The notes beneath the pieces are model-generated. The model worked only from the letters and a program-made list of their open reading frames with translations. It searched no databases and was not told the origin of the DNA. Shown here piece after piece: positions 1 to 10,922 of a DNA stretch of 64,000 nt (position 1 is the stretch's first letter; the number at the start of each line of letters is the position of its first letter). The position numbers and the translations under genes were made by a program. Source of the stretch: a virus (taxonomy: Duplodnaviria; Caudoviricetes); the IMG/VR virus record IMGVR_UViG_3300017700_000931, positions 224,001-288,000 of that record; one strand, given 5' to 3'.

Positions 1-319
1 CTTGAACTATTGGAATCATATTTCTAACCGCTTCCATAGGTTCGGCGGTTTCTGAATCAAATTGTTTCTTATAATTTTTAAGAACGTCACCAAATCTTTT
101 CGACATGATTTTTTCTTCAAAATGAGATTCATCACTCTCAGGAAAAATAGGGTGATTACCTAGACTATGATTTCTGTCTCTCAGTTGTTTAACTAAAATT
201 GAATTCATTTTTTCAGGATGACCATCTTCATAAACAATTCTACTTTCGTTGATTGGTTTATTAGTACTGGCCAATGCCTTTTCTAATGCTCTTTTTCTTA
301 TTTCGTCTAATCTACTCAT
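1..319 (-). CDS. Hypothetical protein, 5' part only (runs off window start)
   Basis: ATG at 319-317 overlaps the upstream TAA (TAATG); open frame MSRLDEIRKRALEKALAS...NHSLGNHPIFPESDESHFEEKIMSKRF continues to base 1; not in the ORF track. Confidence 0.8.
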   Translation of the reverse strand, partial: MSRLDEIRKRALEKALASTNKPINESRIVYEDGHPEKMNSILVKQLRDRNHSLGNHPIFPESDESHFEEKIMSKRFGDVLKNYKKQFDSETAEPMEAVRNMIPIVQ

Positions 320-1074
320 TATTTTTTTGTTTTTAGTATGTGTTCAACCAAATCAGATTTCTTCATCCTTGGGTTAACGTTTTCTGATACGGATTTTAAT
401 GATTGTAATATCATTGGTAATTTTGCTCTAGGAATTCCGATTCTCTCACCGAACGCTGCAATTATTTCAGCTTGCTCAATGGGTTTATCTATCTTAGCAA
501 ATAAAGCTTCAAACTGACCTAGATTTAATTTATCCATAAATTTTTGTACGTCGGATTTTAATTTAACTTGGTCAACAGGAATGGTTTCTAAATTTTCTTC
601 AGTAAGTCCATTATTTTTTTTCTTCAACGCTTTAACGTATTGTTTTTTAATATTTAACAATGTTGGTATACCGTCAAATTCCATATTTCTTTTTAGAATT
701 ACTTCAGTGTTAGGTTTCCCACCAGTATCATACACACTTCTAGAAGTTATTTTTAACACACCATTTTTATAAATAATTGGAGTGTAAACCATAGGCTCTT
801 CCCAAGTACCTGTAGTATCAATTACACCTATCGGGTCACCGTCAGTATCGATTGCATCAGTAATCATTTGATTAATTAGATTAACCAATTTCTCTACTTT
901 AGGTTCATTACGATTAGTACCAGCATTATCGGCCTCATCAACAATCTTCACAACAGTATCGTCTGGTAATTCATCAACACTATCTTGATATTGTTGCAAA
1001 TTCATAACAACTTTCTTTTGTTCAGCTTCAACAACCTTATGAAGTTCACCAGTGATTTTATTTTTTAAGTTCAT
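319..1074 (-). CDS. Hypothetical protein, probably virion/head-associated
   Basis: 251-aa ORF coupled to its neighbours; function inferred from operon context only. Confidence 0.75.
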   Translation of the reverse strand: MNLKNKITGELHKVVEAEQKKVVMNLQQYQDSVDELPDDTVVKIVDEADNAGTNRNEPKVEKLVNLINQMITDAIDTDGDPIGVIDTTGTWEEPMVYTPIIYKNGVLKITSRSVYDTGGKPNTEVILKRNMEFDGIPTLLNIKKQYVKALKKKNNGLTEENLETIPVDQVKLKSDVQKFMDKLNLGQFEALFAKIDKPIEQAEIIAAFGERIGIPRAKLPMILQSLKSVSENVNPRMKKSDLVEHILKTKK

Positions 1075-1477
1075 TTTTTTTGACTTTATATTCTAGTACG
1101 AAATCTTTCTCGTACAAAGAGTCTTCAACAGACTTTATTGTTTGTCCAAATTTAAACCTAAGTCTAGAATTTGGGTATTCTTCATAATCAGAAATATCTT
1201 CCCAAGCTAATGCTATGATATCATCAACAGCATCCCAAACAGCAAAGGTGTCGCTATTTTGTACTGTTTCAAGCTTTAATTTTGAAGTCAATACACCAAC
1301 AGCCTTAACCAAATCTTTTCTAGGTGGGCTAGGTTGTCCCGATGCCGGATACAAGTCCCAATCTTCACCATCAATATTTTCTTTAGTATCTGAAAAAATG
1401 AATTCATAAATGTTCTCATTCTCCCAATCACTACCTAAAACATTTACATAAATCAAAAACAATCCGTCTTTATTCAT
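1058..1477 (-). CDS. Conserved-looking hypothetical phage protein
   Basis: 139-aa ORF, start overlaps the stop of 1477..2565. Confidence 0.75.
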   Translation of the reverse strand: MNKDGLFLIYVNVLGSDWENENIYEFIFSDTKENIDGEDWDLYPASGQPSPPRKDLVKAVGVLTSKLKLETVQNSDTFAVWDAVDDIIALAWEDISDYEEYPNSRLRFKFGQTIKSVEDSLYEKDFVLEYKVKKNELKK

Positions 1478-2565
1478 TATTTTTTCTCTTCAATATAATC
1501 ATCAGCAACACCTGAAACATCCAAATTTGTTTCTGGATTACCATTAAATTCTACCTTCACAGTATAATTTTTCTCATCCGGTGCATCAACTGATTTATAA
1601 ATATAAAGCCATGGCTCATCGCTGTTAGTTGGCTTTTCAGTGTATTCACCTGAATTTTCAAACTTCATATCAATCTCATTGTCATCTAAACTAACTTTAA
1701 GAATTGCTATTTTGCTATCTAAAAATTTAACATCAATGATTTTACCACTAGCACCATTACCTTCAGATAATACATCAGATGCTTTAGGATTTGTTTTAGG
1801 TTGAATACTTGGCCTCCAAGGTTTTTGTCTTCTAGATGGTTTAACATCCGGTGTACTAGGTTTGATTGTTGGTTTAACAATCGGTTCTACTTCAGACATC
1901 TCATTTAACTTGCTCATAATTTTAGCTTTAGTCACAAAGTTACGCTTTTTTTCTGAATCTACCAACGATTTAGTCGGTGTTTTTCCCTCACCTAATTTAA
2001 AATTTTCTTCGGCAACATCTTCTCCACCTAAATCCGGTGCATCATTACCACCATCTCCATTGGTTGTATCAACATTAGCATCAGTATTATCTGAATTAGT
2101 ATCAACATCGACATTAACGTCTACATTATTTTTATCGTTACCAGCTGATTTAACCTTGTCAATGATATCCTTTTGGTCAGAATCATCCATTTGGCCTGTG
2201 TGAGTAGCTGAAAGAACTGAATTAACAGCAAATTTTTCTAAATCAAAATCAGGATTACCTTGTTGTCCACTATATGACCTCAATGATTGACCTAATTTAC
2301 CAGCTAATTGTTGTATGAATGTTTTTGGGTCTGATTCTTCATCAGCTTCAACACCAGCATCGAATGGTTCATCATCAAAAGGTTTATCATCAACTGGTGC
2401 ATCACCACCCATATCCTCTAAACTTCCTAAATCACCACCCATGTCTTCCAATCCATCCAATGAATTAGCATCAGGTGCTGGGGCTTGAGCCCCCAACTTT
2501 AATTTGAATTTTGTTTCATCGATATTATATCCATTTTCCTCATCAGAGAAAAGGCCAGTGGACAT
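1477..2565 (-). CDS. Acidic low-complexity protein; probably the C-terminal part of a -1 frameshift fusion with 2586..3419
   Basis: Frame stays open upstream of the ATG back to the A10 run (KKSLTETKLDG-MSTGLF). Confidence 0.75.
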   Translation of the reverse strand: MSTGLFSDEENGYNIDETKFKLKLGAQAPAPDANSLDGLEDMGGDLGSLEDMGGDAPVDDKPFDDEPFDAGVEADEESDPKTFIQQLAGKLGQSLRSYSGQQGNPDFDLEKFAVNSVLSATHTGQMDDSDQKDIIDKVKSAGNDKNNVDVNVDVDTNSDNTDANVDTTNGDGGNDAPDLGGEDVAEENFKLGEGKTPTKSLVDSEKKRNFVTKAKIMSKLNEMSEVEPIVKPTIKPSTPDVKPSRRQKPWRPSIQPKTNPKASDVLSEGNGASGKIIDVKFLDSKIAILKVSLDDNEIDMKFENSGEYTEKPTNSDEPWLYIYKSVDAPDEKNYTVKVEFNGNPETNLDVSGVADDYIEEKK

Positions 2566-2569
2566 ACCA

Positions 2570-2604
2570 TCTAACTTAGTTTCAGTTAGACTTTTTTTTT
2601 TAAA
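2570..2604 (-). other. Candidate -1 programmed ribosomal frameshift signal
   Basis: Minus strand T-TTA-AAA heptamer, 7-nt spacer, then 7-bp hairpin TCTAACT/AGTTAGA. Confidence 0.7.
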
Positions 2605-3419
2605 GCTTCAGAAAGAGCTTTAATTTCTTGTGGAGTTAGGCTATTAAGCATTTTATTCAATCTATCTTCGTTTTCACCGATAGAAATTGCTTTACCTATT
2701 TTAAGTCTTTTGTTCACAAGGTAATCATCTGATTCATCAGAGTCACCATCGTTATCAACATCAGAATCTTCTTTACCAACTGCATCCAATGATTCACCAG
2801 TAATCATTTTATCAATTGCTTCTTCATCTTCAGTCAATTCAACATCGTCTTCTTTTATAATTTCAGTATCATGGCCAGCACCTCTTGCTTTACCAGTATT
2901 TTTTGAGCTAGCTTTTGGTTTTTCTTTAAAATCACCTTCTAGATTATCTCCAGATGTATCTTTGTCAACCGGAGCGGCATCACCATTCATGTCCTCTATT
3001 TCACCAACAAATCCCCAAGAACCACCAGCAATGGCATTATCTTCTTTAAGTAATCTATCGTTCTCAAATACATTAACTCTTTCACCACCAAATGATTCAT
3101 TGATGCTTAAGAATTTAAGATTTAATTGCTTAATAGCTTTTGCGTATGTTGGGTAAGCTTCAGCTTTTTTATTTTGAAGTCCACCAATATATTTAAAATC
3201 TTCAGTAACAAGATTAGATTTTTTATCAGATATCTTGATATAATATTCATGATTTTCTCTAACGATTCCGTAGACAACACCATTAGGCCCAACTTTTGTC
3301 AACTCAACAACAGAATTATTTGTAGATTCATTAACGAATGTACCCATCAATTGTCTGATACGGTCCAATTCTTGATTTCCTTTTAGACCTGTTGGTTTAA
3401 TTGTATTAATTTTCTTCAT
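2586..3419 (-). CDS. Acidic hypothetical protein (head scaffold/core-like by inference), ends LKKKV-stop at the slippery site
   Basis: 277-aa ORF, ATATTTAT motif 18 nt upstream. Confidence 0.8.
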   Translation of the reverse strand: MKKINTIKPTGLKGNQELDRIRQLMGTFVNESTNNSVVELTKVGPNGVVYGIVRENHEYYIKISDKKSNLVTEDFKYIGGLQNKKAEAYPTYAKAIKQLNLKFLSINESFGGERVNVFENDRLLKEDNAIAGGSWGFVGEIEDMNGDAAPVDKDTSGDNLEGDFKEKPKASSKNTGKARGAGHDTEIIKEDDVELTEDEEAIDKMITGESLDAVGKEDSDVDNDGDSDESDDYLVNKRLKIGKAISIGENEDRLNKMLNSLTPQEIKALSEALKKKV

Positions 3420-3455: not shown

Positions 3456-3707
3456 TTAAAGTACCTGACTACCAAGATTTGTATTTTGGTACAGAGTATT
3501 CATAGGTGAACCTATAACGTATACGTTAGCTGTCGAGCTAATTGATTTAACTCTAATATCTAGTACAGTCCCAGCTGCCATCACAACACTCGTACCATTG
3601 ATGGTAGGTGTAGCATTTGCCCCAGCATAAACTTGAGTATAAGTAAATGCGCTCAAATTTGCAGATGATGATAGGTGAATTATTGAATTATCTTTTAGAA
3701 GTCCCAT
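3456..3707 (-). CDS. Small beta-rich hypothetical protein (possible virion decoration)
   Basis: 83 aa, S/T/A/G/V-rich, ATATTTAT motif upstream. Confidence 0.7.
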   Translation of the reverse strand: MGLLKDNSIIHLSSSANLSAFTYTQVYAGANATPTINGTSVVMAAGTVLDIRVKSISSTANVYVIGSPMNTLYQNTNLGSQVL

Positions 3708-3958: not shown

Positions 3959-5074
3959 TTAGTTAGAAAGTTTTGCAATTATAGCCGGATGTGGGTCATA
4001 ATTTGAAATCTTAACGTTCTCATAACAATAAGTAAAAAGATTATCTGCTTTTTCTAGATTTAATTTGGGTAATTCTCTAGGCTCCCTAGATAATAATTCA
4101 TTTACTTGGTCAATATGATTCTTGTAAATATGCACATCACCTAACGACCCAATCAATTCATCTGGTACCATATTAACTTCCTTCGCAATCATATGTAATA
4201 GAAGTGCATATGATGCAATGTTAAATGGTAACCCCAAGAATGTATCAACTGAACGTTGAATCCATTTTAATGAAATAGCCCTAGTTGGTATATTAAATGA
4301 ATCAAAATATTCATGAGATTCTTTACTTCGTTCTAGAACTTCCGGTTTAGTCAAGCGATTAAAATATTCATCTCTACGTTCCTCTAAATCCAACACCCTT
4401 GTATTTAGTTCAAAACCATAGTGACACGGCGGCAATACCATATCTTTAATTTCACCAACATTCCACGCATTAACAATAAGCCTTCTAGAATCAGGATTAT
4501 TTTTCAATTCATTAATTAAATTTGCAATTTGATTTATACCTTTGAAATGAACACCCATATTACCAGCTCTATCAGCATGGCCAGCGGAGAAATAACCACC
4601 CCAGTTTACCCACTGCTTACCATAGATAGGTCCTAAATCACCCCATTTTTTTGCAAATGATTCAGACCCATATTCATGACAATTTTTTATCATATCTATA
4701 AAGTCTGCTTCGGATAAAATAATATCCTTGTTTTCACCATTCAATTTTTTAACCATCTGAGTTGTACCAGAAGCATTCCCTTTTTCAAATTCACTTTTAT
4801 AATGTTTATAAGCATCACCATTCCAAATGTGAACTCCATTATCTACAAGATATTTTATGTTCGTATCACCATTCAAAAACCATAGAAGTTCATGAACAAT
4901 ACCCTTCATATACATTTTCTTTGTGGTTAACAATGGAAATCCGTCTGACATTTTAAATCTAACATCTCTGGAAAAAACAGAAATGGTACCAGTTCCAGTT
5001 CTATCACTTTTACTAGTACCATTTTCTAAAATGTCTTTCAATAGTTTTTGGTAAACTACATCTACTTTATCCAT
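3959..5074 (-). CDS. thyA: Thymidylate synthase
   Basis: DRTGTGT, FPLLTTK, ELLWF, LGPIYGKQW, MVLPPCH, QRSVDTFLGLPFNIASY, GDVHIYKNH motifs. Confidence 0.98.
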   Translation of the reverse strand: MDKVDVVYQKLLKDILENGTSKSDRTGTGTISVFSRDVRFKMSDGFPLLTTKKMYMKGIVHELLWFLNGDTNIKYLVDNGVHIWNGDAYKHYKSEFEKGNASGTTQMVKKLNGENKDIILSEADFIDMIKNCHEYGSESFAKKWGDLGPIYGKQWVNWGGYFSAGHADRAGNMGVHFKGINQIANLINELKNNPDSRRLIVNAWNVGEIKDMVLPPCHYGFELNTRVLDLEERRDEYFNRLTKPEVLERSKESHEYFDSFNIPTRAISLKWIQRSVDTFLGLPFNIASYALLLHMIAKEVNMVPDELIGSLGDVHIYKNHIDQVNELLSREPRELPKLNLEKADNLFTYCYENVKISNYDPHPAIIAKLSN

Positions 5075-5498
5075 TCTTTTCGTTGTTTAATTTGGAAATT
5101 AAATATTGAATTTTAGTTAACAATGCTGCATCCATAACAGATTTGCTAGCATAGGTACTAATTGTTTTATCCATAGCTTTAATCAAATCACCCTCAATCA
5201 TTTTGATTTCATTTTCTTGATGTTTTTCAACTTCCTCAATGATTTTGCTTGGGTCTATTGCTTCACCTTGAGTGAATGGATACTTCTTAATCACTTCATT
5301 CAATACTTTACCTTGTGATTCAGCAATTTCAAATCTAGTGTAATCCGTAACCGGAACACCAGTATAAGTATAGTTGGTACCCTTAGCGAAAGTTATTGTC
5401 AAGGCTCCATTGGCTTTATCGTATTTTGAAGCTAATACGTTAGAAGATTTGTAAATCGATTTTACAATTCCATCTTTTTCTACTCTTTTTAAAATCAT
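5067..5498 (-). CDS. KTSC-domain protein
   Basis: SSNVLASKYD...LTITF.KGTNYTYTGVP...AESQGK pattern typical of KTSC. Confidence 0.8.
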   Translation of the reverse strand: MILKRVEKDGIVKSIYKSSNVLASKYDKANGALTITFAKGTNYTYTGVPVTDYTRFEIAESQGKVLNEVIKKYPFTQGEAIDPSKIIEEVEKHQENEIKMIEGDLIKAMDKTISTYASKSVMDAALLTKIQYLISKLNNEKNG

Positions 5499-5830: not shown

Positions 5831-8347
5831 ATGAAGAAGGATGTTCTACCGAAGGTAAAAATTGTTATGAAGAATGCCTTCGAAGAAGCGAAGGCTTTTA
5901 GTGATATTAAACTAAGACCGGAGCATATAATGATGTCAATGATTACTGATGATGACAACAAATGTGTTGATATCCTAAAAGAATTAAAGGTTGACTTAAG
6001 TGAATTATATGATAGATTGAGTAGATATTTGATTGAAAGTGATTTGATACCAAGAATTACTACTTCAGCAAATGTTGATTTACCACCAAGTGAACTAACA
6101 ACTAAAATTTTTAAAACAATTGATAACGAATGCGACGAATTAGGTGATGCCGCAATAGATTTAACACATATAATGTTAGCTATCTTAAATCAAGATTCAC
6201 CAACAACTAGTATCCTACTTGAAATGGGAGTAAACTATAAAAATTTCAAAAACCTTATTATGAATAAAAACGAAGAAACAAAAGGTTCATACGATGAATC
6301 AGATGAAATGAATGAAGGTTCTAAATCAATCAACAATAAGAAAAAAAACACGACAACGAAAACACCAGTTTTAGATAACTTCTGTAGGGACGTTAGTAAG
6401 GCTGCTGAAGATGGTTTAATTGACCCAGTAGTTGGTAGACATAATGAAATCAAACGTGTTTCAACAATCCTATCTAGAAGAAAGAAAAACAATCCAGTTT
6501 TAATTGGAGAACCCGGAGTTGGTAAAACTTCTATTGTAGAAGGATTAGCCCAACTTATCAAAGATAAAAAAGCACCAAGATGCCTTTTAGAAAAAAGAAT
6601 TTATTCATTGGACCTTGCTTCAATTGTTGCTGGTACAAAGTATCGTGGACAATTTGAAGAAAGAATGAAAGCGATTCTTGAAGAATTGAAAGAGAACCCA
6701 AATGTAGTATTGTTTATTGATGAGTTACATACCATCGTAGGTGCTGGTAATGCTAGTGGTTCGTTGGATGCATCCAATATCTTTAAACCAGCATTGGCTC
6801 GTGGTGAGATACAAGTAATTGGTGCTACAACACTTGATGAGTTCCGTGAAAACATCGAAAAAGATGGTGCATTAACTCGTAGATTCCAACAAGTTTTAAT
6901 TGAGGAACCGACTAACGAAGAAACTGTCACAATCCTTATGAATATTAAGGATAAATACGAAAATCACCACAAGGTTAAGTATACACGAGAAGCAATTGAA
7001 GAATGTGTTAAGATGGCTGATAGATATATCTCTGATAGAGCTATGCCAGACAAAGCAATCGATATTCTAGATGAAGCTGGAGCTATTACTAATGTTGACA
7101 TTGAAGTTCCAGATAATATTAAAAAATTAGAAATCAAAAAGGTTGAAATTGAAGCTAAAAAAGTTGCTGTTGTTGCAAAACAACAATATGAAGAAGCTGC
7201 TAAATTGAGAGATGACGAAAAGAAAGTTGAGGAAGATATTGAAAAAGCTAAAAAAGAATGGATTGAAAGTTTAGATAAAGAACGAACAATCATTACTGTT
7301 GAATTGGTTGCCGAAGTAGTTTCCAATATGACTGGTATTCCACTTAGTAAAGTTTCAACTGAAGACACTAAACAATTGGCTCAAATGGAAGCTAATCTTT
7401 CTGGAGCTGTAATCGGACAAGATGAGGCTGTTATTAAGGTTTCTAAAGCAATCAAAAGAAGTAGATTGGGGATTAGAAAAGGTGGTAAACCAATCGGTTC
7501 ATTTATTTTCTTAGGACCAACTGGTGTAGGTAAAACTTATCTGGCCAAATTACTCGCCGAATATGTTTTTGGTGATAAAGATGCGTTGGTTCGTATTGAT
7601 ATGAGTGAATACATGGAGAAATTCTCTACATCCAGATTAATCGGGGCACCTCCGGGGTATGTCGGATATGAAGAAGGTGGTAAATTGACTGAAGCAATTC
7701 GTCGTAAACCTTACTCAGTCGTATTGTTTGATGAAATTGAAAAAGCACATCCTGATGTCTTCAATCTATTATTACAATTACTAGATGAAGGACAACTTAC
7801 TGATTCACTTGGACGTAAAATCGATTTCAAAAATACTATGGTAATCATGACATCAAATATTGGTGTTAAAGAATTGAATAGTTTTGGAACTGCGGTTGGA
7901 TTTGCTACTGGTGATACTATCGTAAAAGAAGAAAAAAGAGCTCACGATATTATCGAAAAAGCACTAAAGAAAAAATTCCCACCAGAATTTCTTAATCGTT
8001 TGGATGATACAATCATCTTCAATTCATTGAAAGAAGAAGACATTCATAAAATCATTAAAATTGAAATTAAAGATGTCGAAAGTAGAATGGCCGAACTTGG
8101 TTATAAAATTAAGTTAGACAAAAAAGGGATGGAATATATTGCCAAACAAGGTTACGACCAAGAATTTGGTGCCAGACCATTAAGTCGTGCAATTCAAAGA
8201 TACATCGAAGATACAATTGCCGATGAAGTGATTAATGGGAATGTCCAACAAGGGGATACCATCAAAATTAGTTACAATAAAACTAAGGATGAAATGGTCA
8301 TCAGCACGGAAAAATCTTCCAAGGAAGAAACTACCGATGAAGAGTAA
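5831..8347 (+). CDS. clpC: ATP-dependent Clp protease ATPase subunit, ClpC type
   Basis: Clp N-domain, Walker A GEPGVGKT and GPTGVGKT, FIDELH, UVR-like KQQYEEAAKLRD, GAPPGYVGYEEGG, FGARPL. Confidence 0.95.
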   Translation: MKKDVLPKVKIVMKNAFEEAKAFSDIKLRPEHIMMSMITDDDNKCVDILKELKVDLSELYDRLSRYLIESDLIPRITTSANVDLPPSELTTKIFKTIDNECDELGDAAIDLTHIMLAILNQDSPTTSILLEMGVNYKNFKNLIMNKNEETKGSYDESDEMNEGSKSINNKKKNTTTKTPVLDNFCRDVSKAAEDGLIDPVVGRHNEIKRVSTILSRRKKNNPVLIGEPGVGKTSIVEGLAQLIKDKKAPRCLLEKRIYSLDLASIVAGTKYRGQFEERMKAILEELKENPNVVLFIDELHTIVGAGNASGSLDASNIFKPALARGEIQVIGATTLDEFRENIEKDGALTRRFQQVLIEEPTNEETVTILMNIKDKYENHHKVKYTREAIEECVKMADRYISDRAMPDKAIDILDEAGAITNVDIEVPDNIKKLEIKKVEIEAKKVAVVAKQQYEEAAKLRDDEKKVEEDIEKAKKEWIESLDKERTIITVELVAEVVSNMTGIPLSKVSTEDTKQLAQMEANLSGAVIGQDEAVIKVSKAIKRSRLGIRKGGKPIGSFIFLGPTGVGKTYLAKLLAEYVFGDKDALVRIDMSEYMEKFSTSRLIGAPPGYVGYEEGGKLTEAIRRKPYSVVLFDEIEKAHPDVFNLLLQLLDEGQLTDSLGRKIDFKNTMVIMTSNIGVKELNSFGTAVGFATGDTIVKEEKRAHDIIEKALKKKFPPEFLNRLDDTIIFNSLKEEDIHKIIKIEIKDVESRMAELGYKIKLDKKGMEYIAKQGYDQEFGARPLSRAIQRYIEDTIADEVINGNVQQGDTIKISYNKTKDEMVISTEKSSKEETTDEE

Positions 8348-9834: not shown

Positions 9835-10257
9835 TTATGCAACTTTTTCACCTATAAATTCATAACTAAAGCAGACCCTTTTATTGTCAACATAGTGATT
9901 CTTAAATAGATTGGTGTGATTCACATCGATTCTTAGCTTCTTATTTTTAGTGGTCGGTTTCCATAATGGAGAATGTTGCATATAATATCCCATTCTGGGG
10001 TGGGCCGCTCTAGAAAAGAACCTCTTACCTTCGTCAAGGTGTAATTGAGCACAAGCGTTAATAAACCTAACCCCGATACCCAAGCCTTGATAATCAGGTA
10101 ATATGACAACCCTATGGCCACGCCACGCATTTTTAACATATCCAGTTGGCATTGCAATACTGGCTAAAAAACCAACCACATTACCGTTCCATGTGGCAAC
10201 ATAACATCTGGTCGCAACATGTAAGTCATCATTTAAATAATGATGCTCTTTAAACAT
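9835..10257 (-). CDS. GNAT-family acetyltransferase (C-terminal part of a probable frameshift fusion)
   Basis: HRVVILPDYQGLGIG acetyl-CoA binding motif. Confidence 0.85.
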   Translation of the reverse strand: MFKEHHYLNDDLHVATRCYVATWNGNVVGFLASIAMPTGYVKNAWRGHRVVILPDYQGLGIGVRFINACAQLHLDEGKRFFSRAAHPRMGYYMQHSPLWKPTTKNKKLRIDVNHTNLFKNHYVDNKRVCFSYEFIGEKVA

Positions 10258-10922
10258 GGGCCAGATACTGCGATTTGCTCTATGTATTTGGAGATTGATT
10301 TCTGGTCGGACAAAAAAAAACCATCGTAGATTTCTCCATTATTAGCATTTATTACCCAGTCCGGTTCTAACCAATCAATCACATCATCATGACAAGTAGC
10401 AATAACCACGTTTTTTATATTATTTTTTTTAATGTATTTTGAAAGAGATACTGATGCAGCCTTCGCTACATTTCTATCTACAACCGACGTGAATTCATCC
10501 AATACTGCATTGTCTTTAATTTTTCTGGCTAAATCGGCCCTAAATTTTTCACCATTGGATAACACATGGTATGGTTTATACCAACTTGGGATAGTATTCA
10601 ATCCAACGGCACCTAATTTATTTATAGCTTCATCTGGCGTATCAAAATGAGACATGATGGATTTATTTATTTCCCAGCTAGGTTGTAATTCTTGACCAAA
10701 TTCATTCAATAGGGTACTTTTTCCAGAACCACTGGAGCCATAAATAACGCCAATATTAAATTCAGATGGTAATAGTTTTGGTTTTTCCCATGGGAAGAAT
10801 CTTGAGGTTCCGTCAAAAGTACAATCAAATGCTTTCTCACTAGCCATGATAAACTCATCCTTTTCAACGGACGAAGTTAGTGGTATTAGTTGTTTTGATA
10901 ATTGTTCTATGATATTCCTCAT
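10233..10922 (-). CDS. Soluble ABC-type ATPase
   Basis: Walker A GSSGSGKS, signature LSNGE, Walker B LDEFTS, switch ATCH; no TM partner nearby. Confidence 0.9.
   Translation of the reverse strand: MRNIIEQLSKQLIPLTSSVEKDEFIMASEKAFDCTFDGTSRFFPWEKPKLLPSEFNIGVIYGSSGSGKSTLLNEFGQELQPSWEINKSIMSHFDTPDEAINKLGAVGLNTIPSWYKPYHVLSNGEKFRADLARKIKDNAVLDEFTSVVDRNVAKAASVSLSKYIKKNNIKNVVIATCHDDVIDWLEPDWVINANNGEIYDGFFLSDQKSISKYIEQIAVSGPCLKSIII
10312..10320 (-). other. Candidate -1 slippery site (U9) joining the ABC ATPase to the GNAT
   Basis: GGT TTT TTT TTG; the -1 frame reads FVRPEINLQIHRANRSIWP-MFKEHHYL. Confidence 0.65.

Follow-up and report, generated by a model that had tools for sequence, protein, structure and literature searches.

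A conserved run of ten adenines as a candidate recoding site between two reading frames of uncultivated T4-like phages

Two adjacent minus-strand open reading frames (ORFs), here named A and B, meet at a run of ten adenines (A10) in a 64,000-nucleotide (nt) stretch of viral DNA that we call the window, positions 224001-288000 of the 362,532-bp IMG/VR virus record IMGVR_UViG_3300017700_000931, which carries direct terminal repeats. Comparison with related sequences indicates that this run is a conserved recoding site under selection in a large family of uncultivated T4-like phages and that the A-B fusion protein read across it is a selected product. The mechanism that we favor, with somewhat better than even confidence, is slippage of RNA polymerase at A10, which would give a 277-amino-acid (aa) protein A together with a 647-aa A-B fusion. 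Slippage is preferred because the run is fixed at ten in any codon phase, no stimulator appears to be conserved beside it, and long A runs are avoided elsewhere.

ORF A (P0001; 2586..3419, minus strand, in window coordinates as throughout unless marked as genome positions) encodes 277 aa, the predicted default short product, and ends in L-K-K-K-V-stop, with the minus-strand sequence GAA GCT TTA AAA AAA AAA GTC TAA. The A10 run, which appears as T10 on the plus strand and is the proposed slip site, lies at 2592..2601 (minus strand), and the 0-frame TAA stop of ORF A follows two codons past it at 2586-2588. In the -1 frame, a TGA at 2608-2610 (minus strand) closes the frame two codons before the run. 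Both frames are therefore open only in 2589..2607 (minus strand), bounded by the -1-frame TGA and the 0-frame TAA, and a shift must occur there. After the TGA, the -1 frame reads S F K K K S L T E T K L D G M S T G..., and its translation, SFKKKSLTETKLDGMSTGLF..., meets no stop until 1477. This frame, 1477..2607 on the minus strand, includes ORF B (P0002), annotated as 362 aa at 1477..2565 (minus strand) with its ATG at 2565, and would form the last 371 residues of the 647-aa fusion.

Three slippery heptamers are in frame at the junction of this genome, namely U UUA AAA (T TTA AAA at 2598-2604, minus strand) and two copies of A AAA AAA. From the base next to the run, an 8-bp hairpin extends over 2569..2591 (minus strand; -7.9 kcal/mol in RNAfold, z = -2.1, with 8 of 200 shuffled sequences folding as well), which is lineage specific and not conserved. 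No Shine-Dalgarno (SD)-like 4-mer occurs within 22 nt upstream of the run in this genome, no terminator was found between A and B, and an Rfam scan of 600 nt revealed no family at the junction and four weak matches elsewhere, all far below threshold. The first-pass annotation, made from the letters of this stretch, had described the end of ORF A, the -1 frame open into ORF B, the heptamer, and its spacer, all of which were confirmed on the minus-strand sequence. Its isoform sizes of 277 and about 647 aa agree with the translations, and the hairpin that it placed 3' of the heptamer is present in this genome.

To place the junction in a wider set, IMG/VR was scanned twice, with ORF B and with an alignment of A homologues, yielding 160 loci; the alignment scan matched 235 stretches. 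Homologues of A and B were placed by tblastn, and the reading frames were then traced in each locus. B lies in the -1 frame in 148 of the 153 loci with both homologues, in the +1 frame in none, and in frame with A in 5. Since random placement would give about one-third for each frame, the share at -1 exceeds chance. All 148 loci with B at -1 carry an A run of at least nine within the 10- to 46-nt overlap of the two frames, and in some relatives the overlap is as short as 10 nt, nearly all of it inside the run. Homologues of A are 42 to 73% identical to ORF A, which implies that the lineages are old. In L007, a 249-aa A is followed by a 376-codon B behind an A10 run. The claim of a programmed shift into the -1 frame, with a short and a long isoform, thus stands.

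Among 89 distinct junctions, the run is A10 in 80, A9 in 6, A11 in 2, and A12 in 1, so that the A run, whose conservation in homologs the first-pass annotation had proposed as a check, is indeed conserved. Although its codon phase varies, with 74, 11, and 4 junctions in the three possible phases, its length stays at ten, which argues for a constraint on the nucleotides and not on a Lys-Lys-Lys peptide. At the nucleotide level, conservation around the run in these junctions is limited to T-A10-G, plus a 0-frame TAA three bases on in most loci. Elsewhere in the same genes, where AAA makes up 79% of the Lys codons, only 6 of 64 KKK triplets are spelled AAA-AAA-AAA, compared with about 49% expected, indicating that long A runs are selected against except at the joint. 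In the whole 362,532-bp genome, two homopolymers of at least ten were found against about ten expected from base composition, and the A10 run of the A/B junction is one of them. The other is an A12 at genome positions 347973-347984, outside the window; no long open frame surrounds it, and it is apparently intergenic.

The same comparison bears on two simpler explanations. An assembly or sequencing error, or a recent pseudogene, with a single A11 ORF as the true gene, might be suspected because homopolymers are error-prone and relatives with an in-frame A11 exist. However, A10 recurs in 80 different junction sequences, which come from many separate metagenome assemblies and whose proteins are 42 to 73% identical to this one, mistakes would not land on ten every time, and the short overlap and the 0-frame stop directly after the run are conserved as well. 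We accordingly give an artifact next to no credence.

Scarcely more credible is an arrangement of two separate genes in which the A run is a coincidence and B has its own start at ATG 2565 (MSTGLF), possibly used by ribosomes that re-initiate past the TAA 20 nt upstream. An ATG does occur 14 codons past the run in this genome and its closest relatives, but in 40 of the first 55 distinct junctions the B frame has no ATG before the ETK[YF]KLKL motif, and in 38 of these 55 it has no ATG, GTG, or TTG there. This also answers the objection, raised beforehand by the first-pass annotation against its own reading, that homologs might start independently at MSTGLF. Furthermore, the Met of MSTGLF is replaced by Ile in L014, residues upstream of this Met are conserved in the -1 frame, the -1-frame peptide KKKSLTE..TK[YF]KLKL being kept among relatives from the run onward, and no good SD sequence precedes ATG 2565. 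Nor would independent genes be expected to hold one frame offset in 148 of 153 loci. Frames, runs, and start codons together make assembly error, a pseudogene, and two independent genes all very unlikely.

Under RNA-polymerase slippage, default expression would yield the 277-aa protein A, terminated two codons beyond the run. On some transcripts, slippage of the host RNA polymerase over the ten A:T pairs would insert one untemplated A, and ordinary translation of the resulting A11 mRNA would carry A into the -1 frame and produce the 647-aa A-B with the junction ...ALKKKSLTETK.... Bacterial RNA polymerase slips efficiently in vivo on at least nine A/T, and its RNA:DNA hybrid measures 9 to 10 bp (PMC5009743). 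We infer that ten is the minimum run that lets a 9- to 10-bp hybrid shift by one base without a mismatch. The choice of the polymerase as the slipping agent is based on the run-length behavior and on studied bacterial cases, and from the same two sources we guess that the long form is a minority, of the order of 10 to 30%. A and A-B probably act together at a set ratio.

Several points weigh against polymerase slippage and in favor of programmed -1 ribosomal frameshifting on U UUA AAA or A AAA AAA within the run, aided by a 3' hairpin or an upstream SD-like word, which we consider a possible but less likely account. Either A AAA AAA or A AAA AAG is in frame at the junction of every relative, so that a -1 ribosomal shift could take place at any of the junctions, with an identical junction peptide as the outcome; in the phase-1 relatives, the heptamer is that of dnaX, A AAA AAG. 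In this genome, the modest 8-bp hairpin begins 7 nt after U UUA AAA. In about half of the junctions, a G-rich, SD-like word of the GAAGG/GAGG type stands 8 to 10 nt ahead of the run, at approximately the spacing of the SD stimulator in dnaX. Phage precedents for such shifts are provided by lambda G/GT, T7 gene 10, and the head and tail proteins of phage A2 (PMC5009743; PMC10885494). In addition, the loci share descent, so the counts given above do not represent independent events.

Across the family, however, the cassette of U UUA AAA and hairpin is not conserved. U UUA AAA is present in about a third of the junctions (a TTT directly ahead of the run was seen in 18 of the first 55) and is therefore missing from about two-thirds. 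A 3' stem of at least 5 bp was detected in 20% of the 89 junctions compared with 18% of 1,068 control windows (P = 0.57), and the mean 3' folding energy was -2.7 kcal/mol at these junctions and -2.9 kcal/mol in control windows from the same genes. In L004, the nearest relative, the hairpin is reduced to a 5-bp variant. SD-like 4-mers within 22 nt upstream of the run were observed in 43 of the 89 junctions, with a peak at -10 to -8; they coincide with conserved Glu-Gly codons. Moreover, the ribosome would need no more than a heptamer, whereas the run remains at ten A's in every phase, and nearby stimulators are usually needed at such sites according to the authors of the tssM1 study (PMC4256274). 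The canonical cassette that the first-pass annotation had named as the driver of the shift is thus found in this genome, both heptamer and hairpin, but neither part holds across the family, and the conserved hairpin that was to be looked for in homologs did not emerge. A hairpin in the nascent RNA abutting the run on its 5' side, as in a Roseiflexus insertion sequence or a terminator, appeared promising by eye and by folding energy; the signal was gone against trinucleotide-matched controls.

The conserved length of the A run in three phases points to polymerase slippage rather than to a signal made of heptamer plus structure, and ribosomal -1 shifting on A AAA AAA/G may contribute too.

Lineages with other run lengths are in line with a functional joint. 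When 5.8 billion proteins were searched with a naturally fused form, 903 related clusters emerged, among them a clade of continuous ORFs. L123, L126, and L168 have an A11 run that is read continuously, and both shifted frames stop within 1 to 3 codons; in L165-167, an A10 run is in frame and one added A leads to an immediate AAG TAA. Since the shifted frames of these A11 and in-frame A10 lineages stop within 0 to 3 codons, slippage there would give the short form. Plain fusions were found in L164, with A7, and in L060/L061, with no run.

In one lineage with near-identical flanks, the run varies by sample, from A12 (L172:1488) and A10 (L173:3045) to A10+G (L175:1984) and A11 (L123:5451 and L168:2451). 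The A10 state of this lineage is split. The A12 state requires a one-base deletion or a +1 shift (in ribosomal terms +1 or -2), which a -1 ribosomal shift cannot supply. A lineage could more readily bear such variation if its mRNAs come in several lengths in any case. It could also be taken as a sign of variation at the DNA level, with replication slippage creating A10 and A11 subpopulations whose genomes make either A or A-B in the manner of a contingency locus, and the assemblies show the majority run length only. The second joint described below, where P0011 has A9 and P0012 has A10, would fit this too. Against it, the run is exactly A10 in 80 of 89 distinct junctions, deep lineages hold one state, and in other lineages the frame stays at -1 even with A9, A11, or A12, so these are not simple toggles. 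We regard a DNA-level switch as improbable.

The second joint is another A10 run, at L168:3054-3063 and L165:1693-1702, at which the fused ORF ends in ...HLKKKLK-stop. Past this run, a -1 frame without an ATG runs into the next ORF, L168:3111-3599, which encodes 162 aa and contains a KKYYVYV..FG..RHxC..YWSC domain that is internal to B in other lineages; no Pfam family matched this domain. Since natural fused forms exist, these sequences indicate that the fusion is functional, that most lineages can make both isoforms, and that an A10 run lies at more than one of the domain boundaries.

The proteins themselves were analyzed by alignment and with AlphaFold models of A and B built on 47-sequence alignments. 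A has a conserved N-terminal domain at residues ~9-125 (3045..3395, minus strand; invariant columns, alignment A1), which was modeled as a confident small alpha/beta domain over residues ~12-110, with a predicted local distance difference test score (pLDDT) of ~70-92 over 31-110, followed by a disordered acidic middle. B has a conserved helical core at residues ~57-142, DKPFDDEPFDAGVEA ... IIxKVK (2140..2397, minus strand; invariant columns, alignment A2), with three helices modeled at 80-141, and a C-terminal beta domain at residues 272-360 (1486..1752, minus strand) with pLDDT above 90. Taken together, the models show three ordered parts with long disordered acidic stretches between them.

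Searches for related folds and families gave no functional assignment. The best hits of a PDB-wide structural search had Z scores of 5.6 (A) and 5.3 (B), inside the noise range stated for the tool; BFVD returned only two uncharacterized phage proteins, and ESM Atlas gave no lead. Nothing significant was found in Pfam for A, B, the fused forms, or the neighbors 1058..1477, 3456..3707, and 319..1074. PHROG matches were confined to families of unknown function over the acidic part of A, with none for its N-terminal domain. A tblastn search of A, B, the N-terminal domain of A, and the core of B against 50,697 GenBank phages gave nothing, even at E ≤ 1.

Residues 143-206 of A (2802..2993, minus strand) are shared with a 412-aa gene elsewhere in the genome (BLASTP, 44% identity over 64 aa, E = 8e-9). 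This gene, which had no PHROG match, occupies the gp22 position, between the gp21-like protease gene and the gp23-like capsid gene and just upstream of the latter. Within the 64-aa segment, both genes encode an identical APVDKDTSGDNLEG, carried by a 47-nt stretch that is 96% identical between window positions 2929-2975 and genome positions 215227-215274 (L002); this near-identity points to either a recent gene conversion event or a functional module common to both genes.

An acidic DxDxDG-like stretch, DSDVDNDGDSDESDDY, was noted at 2719-2790 (ORF A residues ~211-233) and may be a calcium-binding motif. It gave the only blastn matches, to hypothetical genes of Synechococcus phages B3 and B23, Prochlorococcus phage P-SSM3, and one Paraglaciecola virus, with 81 to 89% DNA identity over 45 to 72 nt; as the gene hit in P-SSM3 is hypothetical, the match is uninformative.

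The prohead protease of T4 (gp21 type) cleaves at (L/I)-x-E. An [LIV]-x-E motif resembling this site occurs within 12 residues past the run in 84 of 89 junctions, compared with 19% of background windows, and may simply be part of the conserved N terminus of B. With the shared 64-aa segment, it offers a hint, of low confidence, at a role of A/B in the prohead.

The genome (GC content, 32.7%) has a T4-type major capsid gene (Pfam Gp23, E = 3e-62) and encodes a prohead protease of the T4 gp21 type (Peptidase_S77 match). The closest GenBank capsid proteins, about 38 to 43% identical, belong to an uncultured 484-kb phage, Flavobacterium "immuto" phages, and a Microcystis phage. An origin from nucleocytoplasmic large DNA viruses was ruled out, as no capsid match to that group was found and the match to T4 Gp23 is clear.

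A/B lies at genome positions 225.5-227.4 kb, 11 kb away from the capsid gene at 212.8-214.4 kb, and the locus is not in the head module. Its neighbors are a thymidylate synthase (3959-5074, minus strand), a KTSC-domain protein (5067-5498, minus strand), an 838-aa ClpB-like two-ring AAA+ protein (5831-8347, plus strand), and a 139-aa ORF (1058-1477, minus strand) that overlaps the stop of B (TAATG). This last ORF was recovered at 155 loci with identity of up to 80%; it is more conserved than A or B and had no Pfam or PHROG match. The order ClpB-like AAA+, KTSC, thymidylate synthase, 83-aa ORF, A/B, 139-aa ORF is kept in relatives. No tail-chaperone Pfam or PHROG match was obtained for A or B, and the neighbors are not tail genes; the first-pass annotation was therefore right to place the site, with these metabolic, AAA+, and small-ORF neighbors, outside the tail-chaperone context. 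Its label of a head scaffold or core-type protein is unproven, given the distance to the capsid gene and the lack of any significant Pfam or fold match.

Another junction-like homopolymer in the window is U9 in minus-strand sense at 10312-10320, between ORFs 10233..10922 and 9835..10257. One minus-strand frame there has 203 open codons ahead of the run and extends 29 codons past it before closing; the -1 frame becomes open 6 codons ahead of the run and continues for 161 codons.

We tentatively sketch a wider model, which is rather unlikely to hold in all its parts. A-B would belong to a family of modular, largely disordered acidic proteins with "slip joints" at domain boundaries, where A10 runs let the polymerase set the ratio of short to extended forms. 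In evolution, lineages would pass among three states, one short by default (A10, split), one long by default (A11, or A10 in frame), and one fully fused, and at least one lineage would have two joints in series (A-B, then KKYYVYV..RHxC..YWSC). The T4-type prohead protease would cut B free at the conserved [LIV]-x-E next to the first joint after A has carried it into the prohead, so that the joint would meter the packaged cargo.

The junction adds a natural example, with good support, of programmed recoding that uses a bare homopolymer and lies away from the usual tail-chaperone setting; its reach is 235 related IMG/VR stretches and, in public metagenomes, about 900 protein clusters. Because gene callers divide the A/B genes or place their starts wrongly, the 647-aa product is absent from annotations. 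The analysis also flags an abundant and conserved protein pair in a clade of 160- to 360-kb T4-like phages without a cultured member. Because close relatives include split, reversed, and fused forms as well as a second joint, the family offers a natural experiment on run length versus isoform ratio and on polymerase versus ribosome.

A literature search revealed no report on recoding in the A/B gene family; the class of mechanism is already known, while its use by this family was not found in the literature. The closest parallels are Citrobacter rodentium tssM1, with 20 to 25% transcriptional frameshifting on an A11 run without nearby stimulators, and Yersinia pseudotuberculosis tssM3 (PMC4256274). 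As proposed for the A/B junction, 10 or 11 A's sit shortly ahead of a stop codon, the reading frame is restored when A's are added, one gene yields short and long variants, and no nearby SD sequence or structure is needed (PMC4256274). Also, the reversal between tssM1 and tssM3, in which the gene is in frame by default and slippage leads to the short form, is mirrored by L165-167 and L123/L168 (PMC4256274). Unlike A/B, these are bacterial secretion-system genes of a few species in which slippage was shown by experiment (PMC4256274), whereas the present case is a phage family with 89 distinct junctions and, in one lineage, a second joint, in which slippage is predicted from sequence comparison.

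The dnaX genes of Thermus thermophilus (A9, transcriptional slippage) and E. coli (A AAA AAG with SD sequence and stem-loop, -1 ribosomal) likewise combine a common N terminus, a set ratio, and an A-rich site, but in dnaX the long form is in frame and the short form arises from the shift, in contrast to this genome (PMC5009743). The SD and stem-loop stimulators of E. coli dnaX are not conserved at A/B junctions, and the protein families are unrelated. Lambda G/GT, T7 gene 10A/10B, and the head and tail proteins of Lactobacillus phage A2 share with A/B a short and a C-terminally extended protein from overlapping frames, presumably at a fixed ratio. Those pairs use short heptamers such as G GGA AAG at defined structural-gene positions, whereas A/B lies between thymidylate synthase and small ORFs, belongs to no Pfam family, and has a ten-base homopolymer as its conserved signal.

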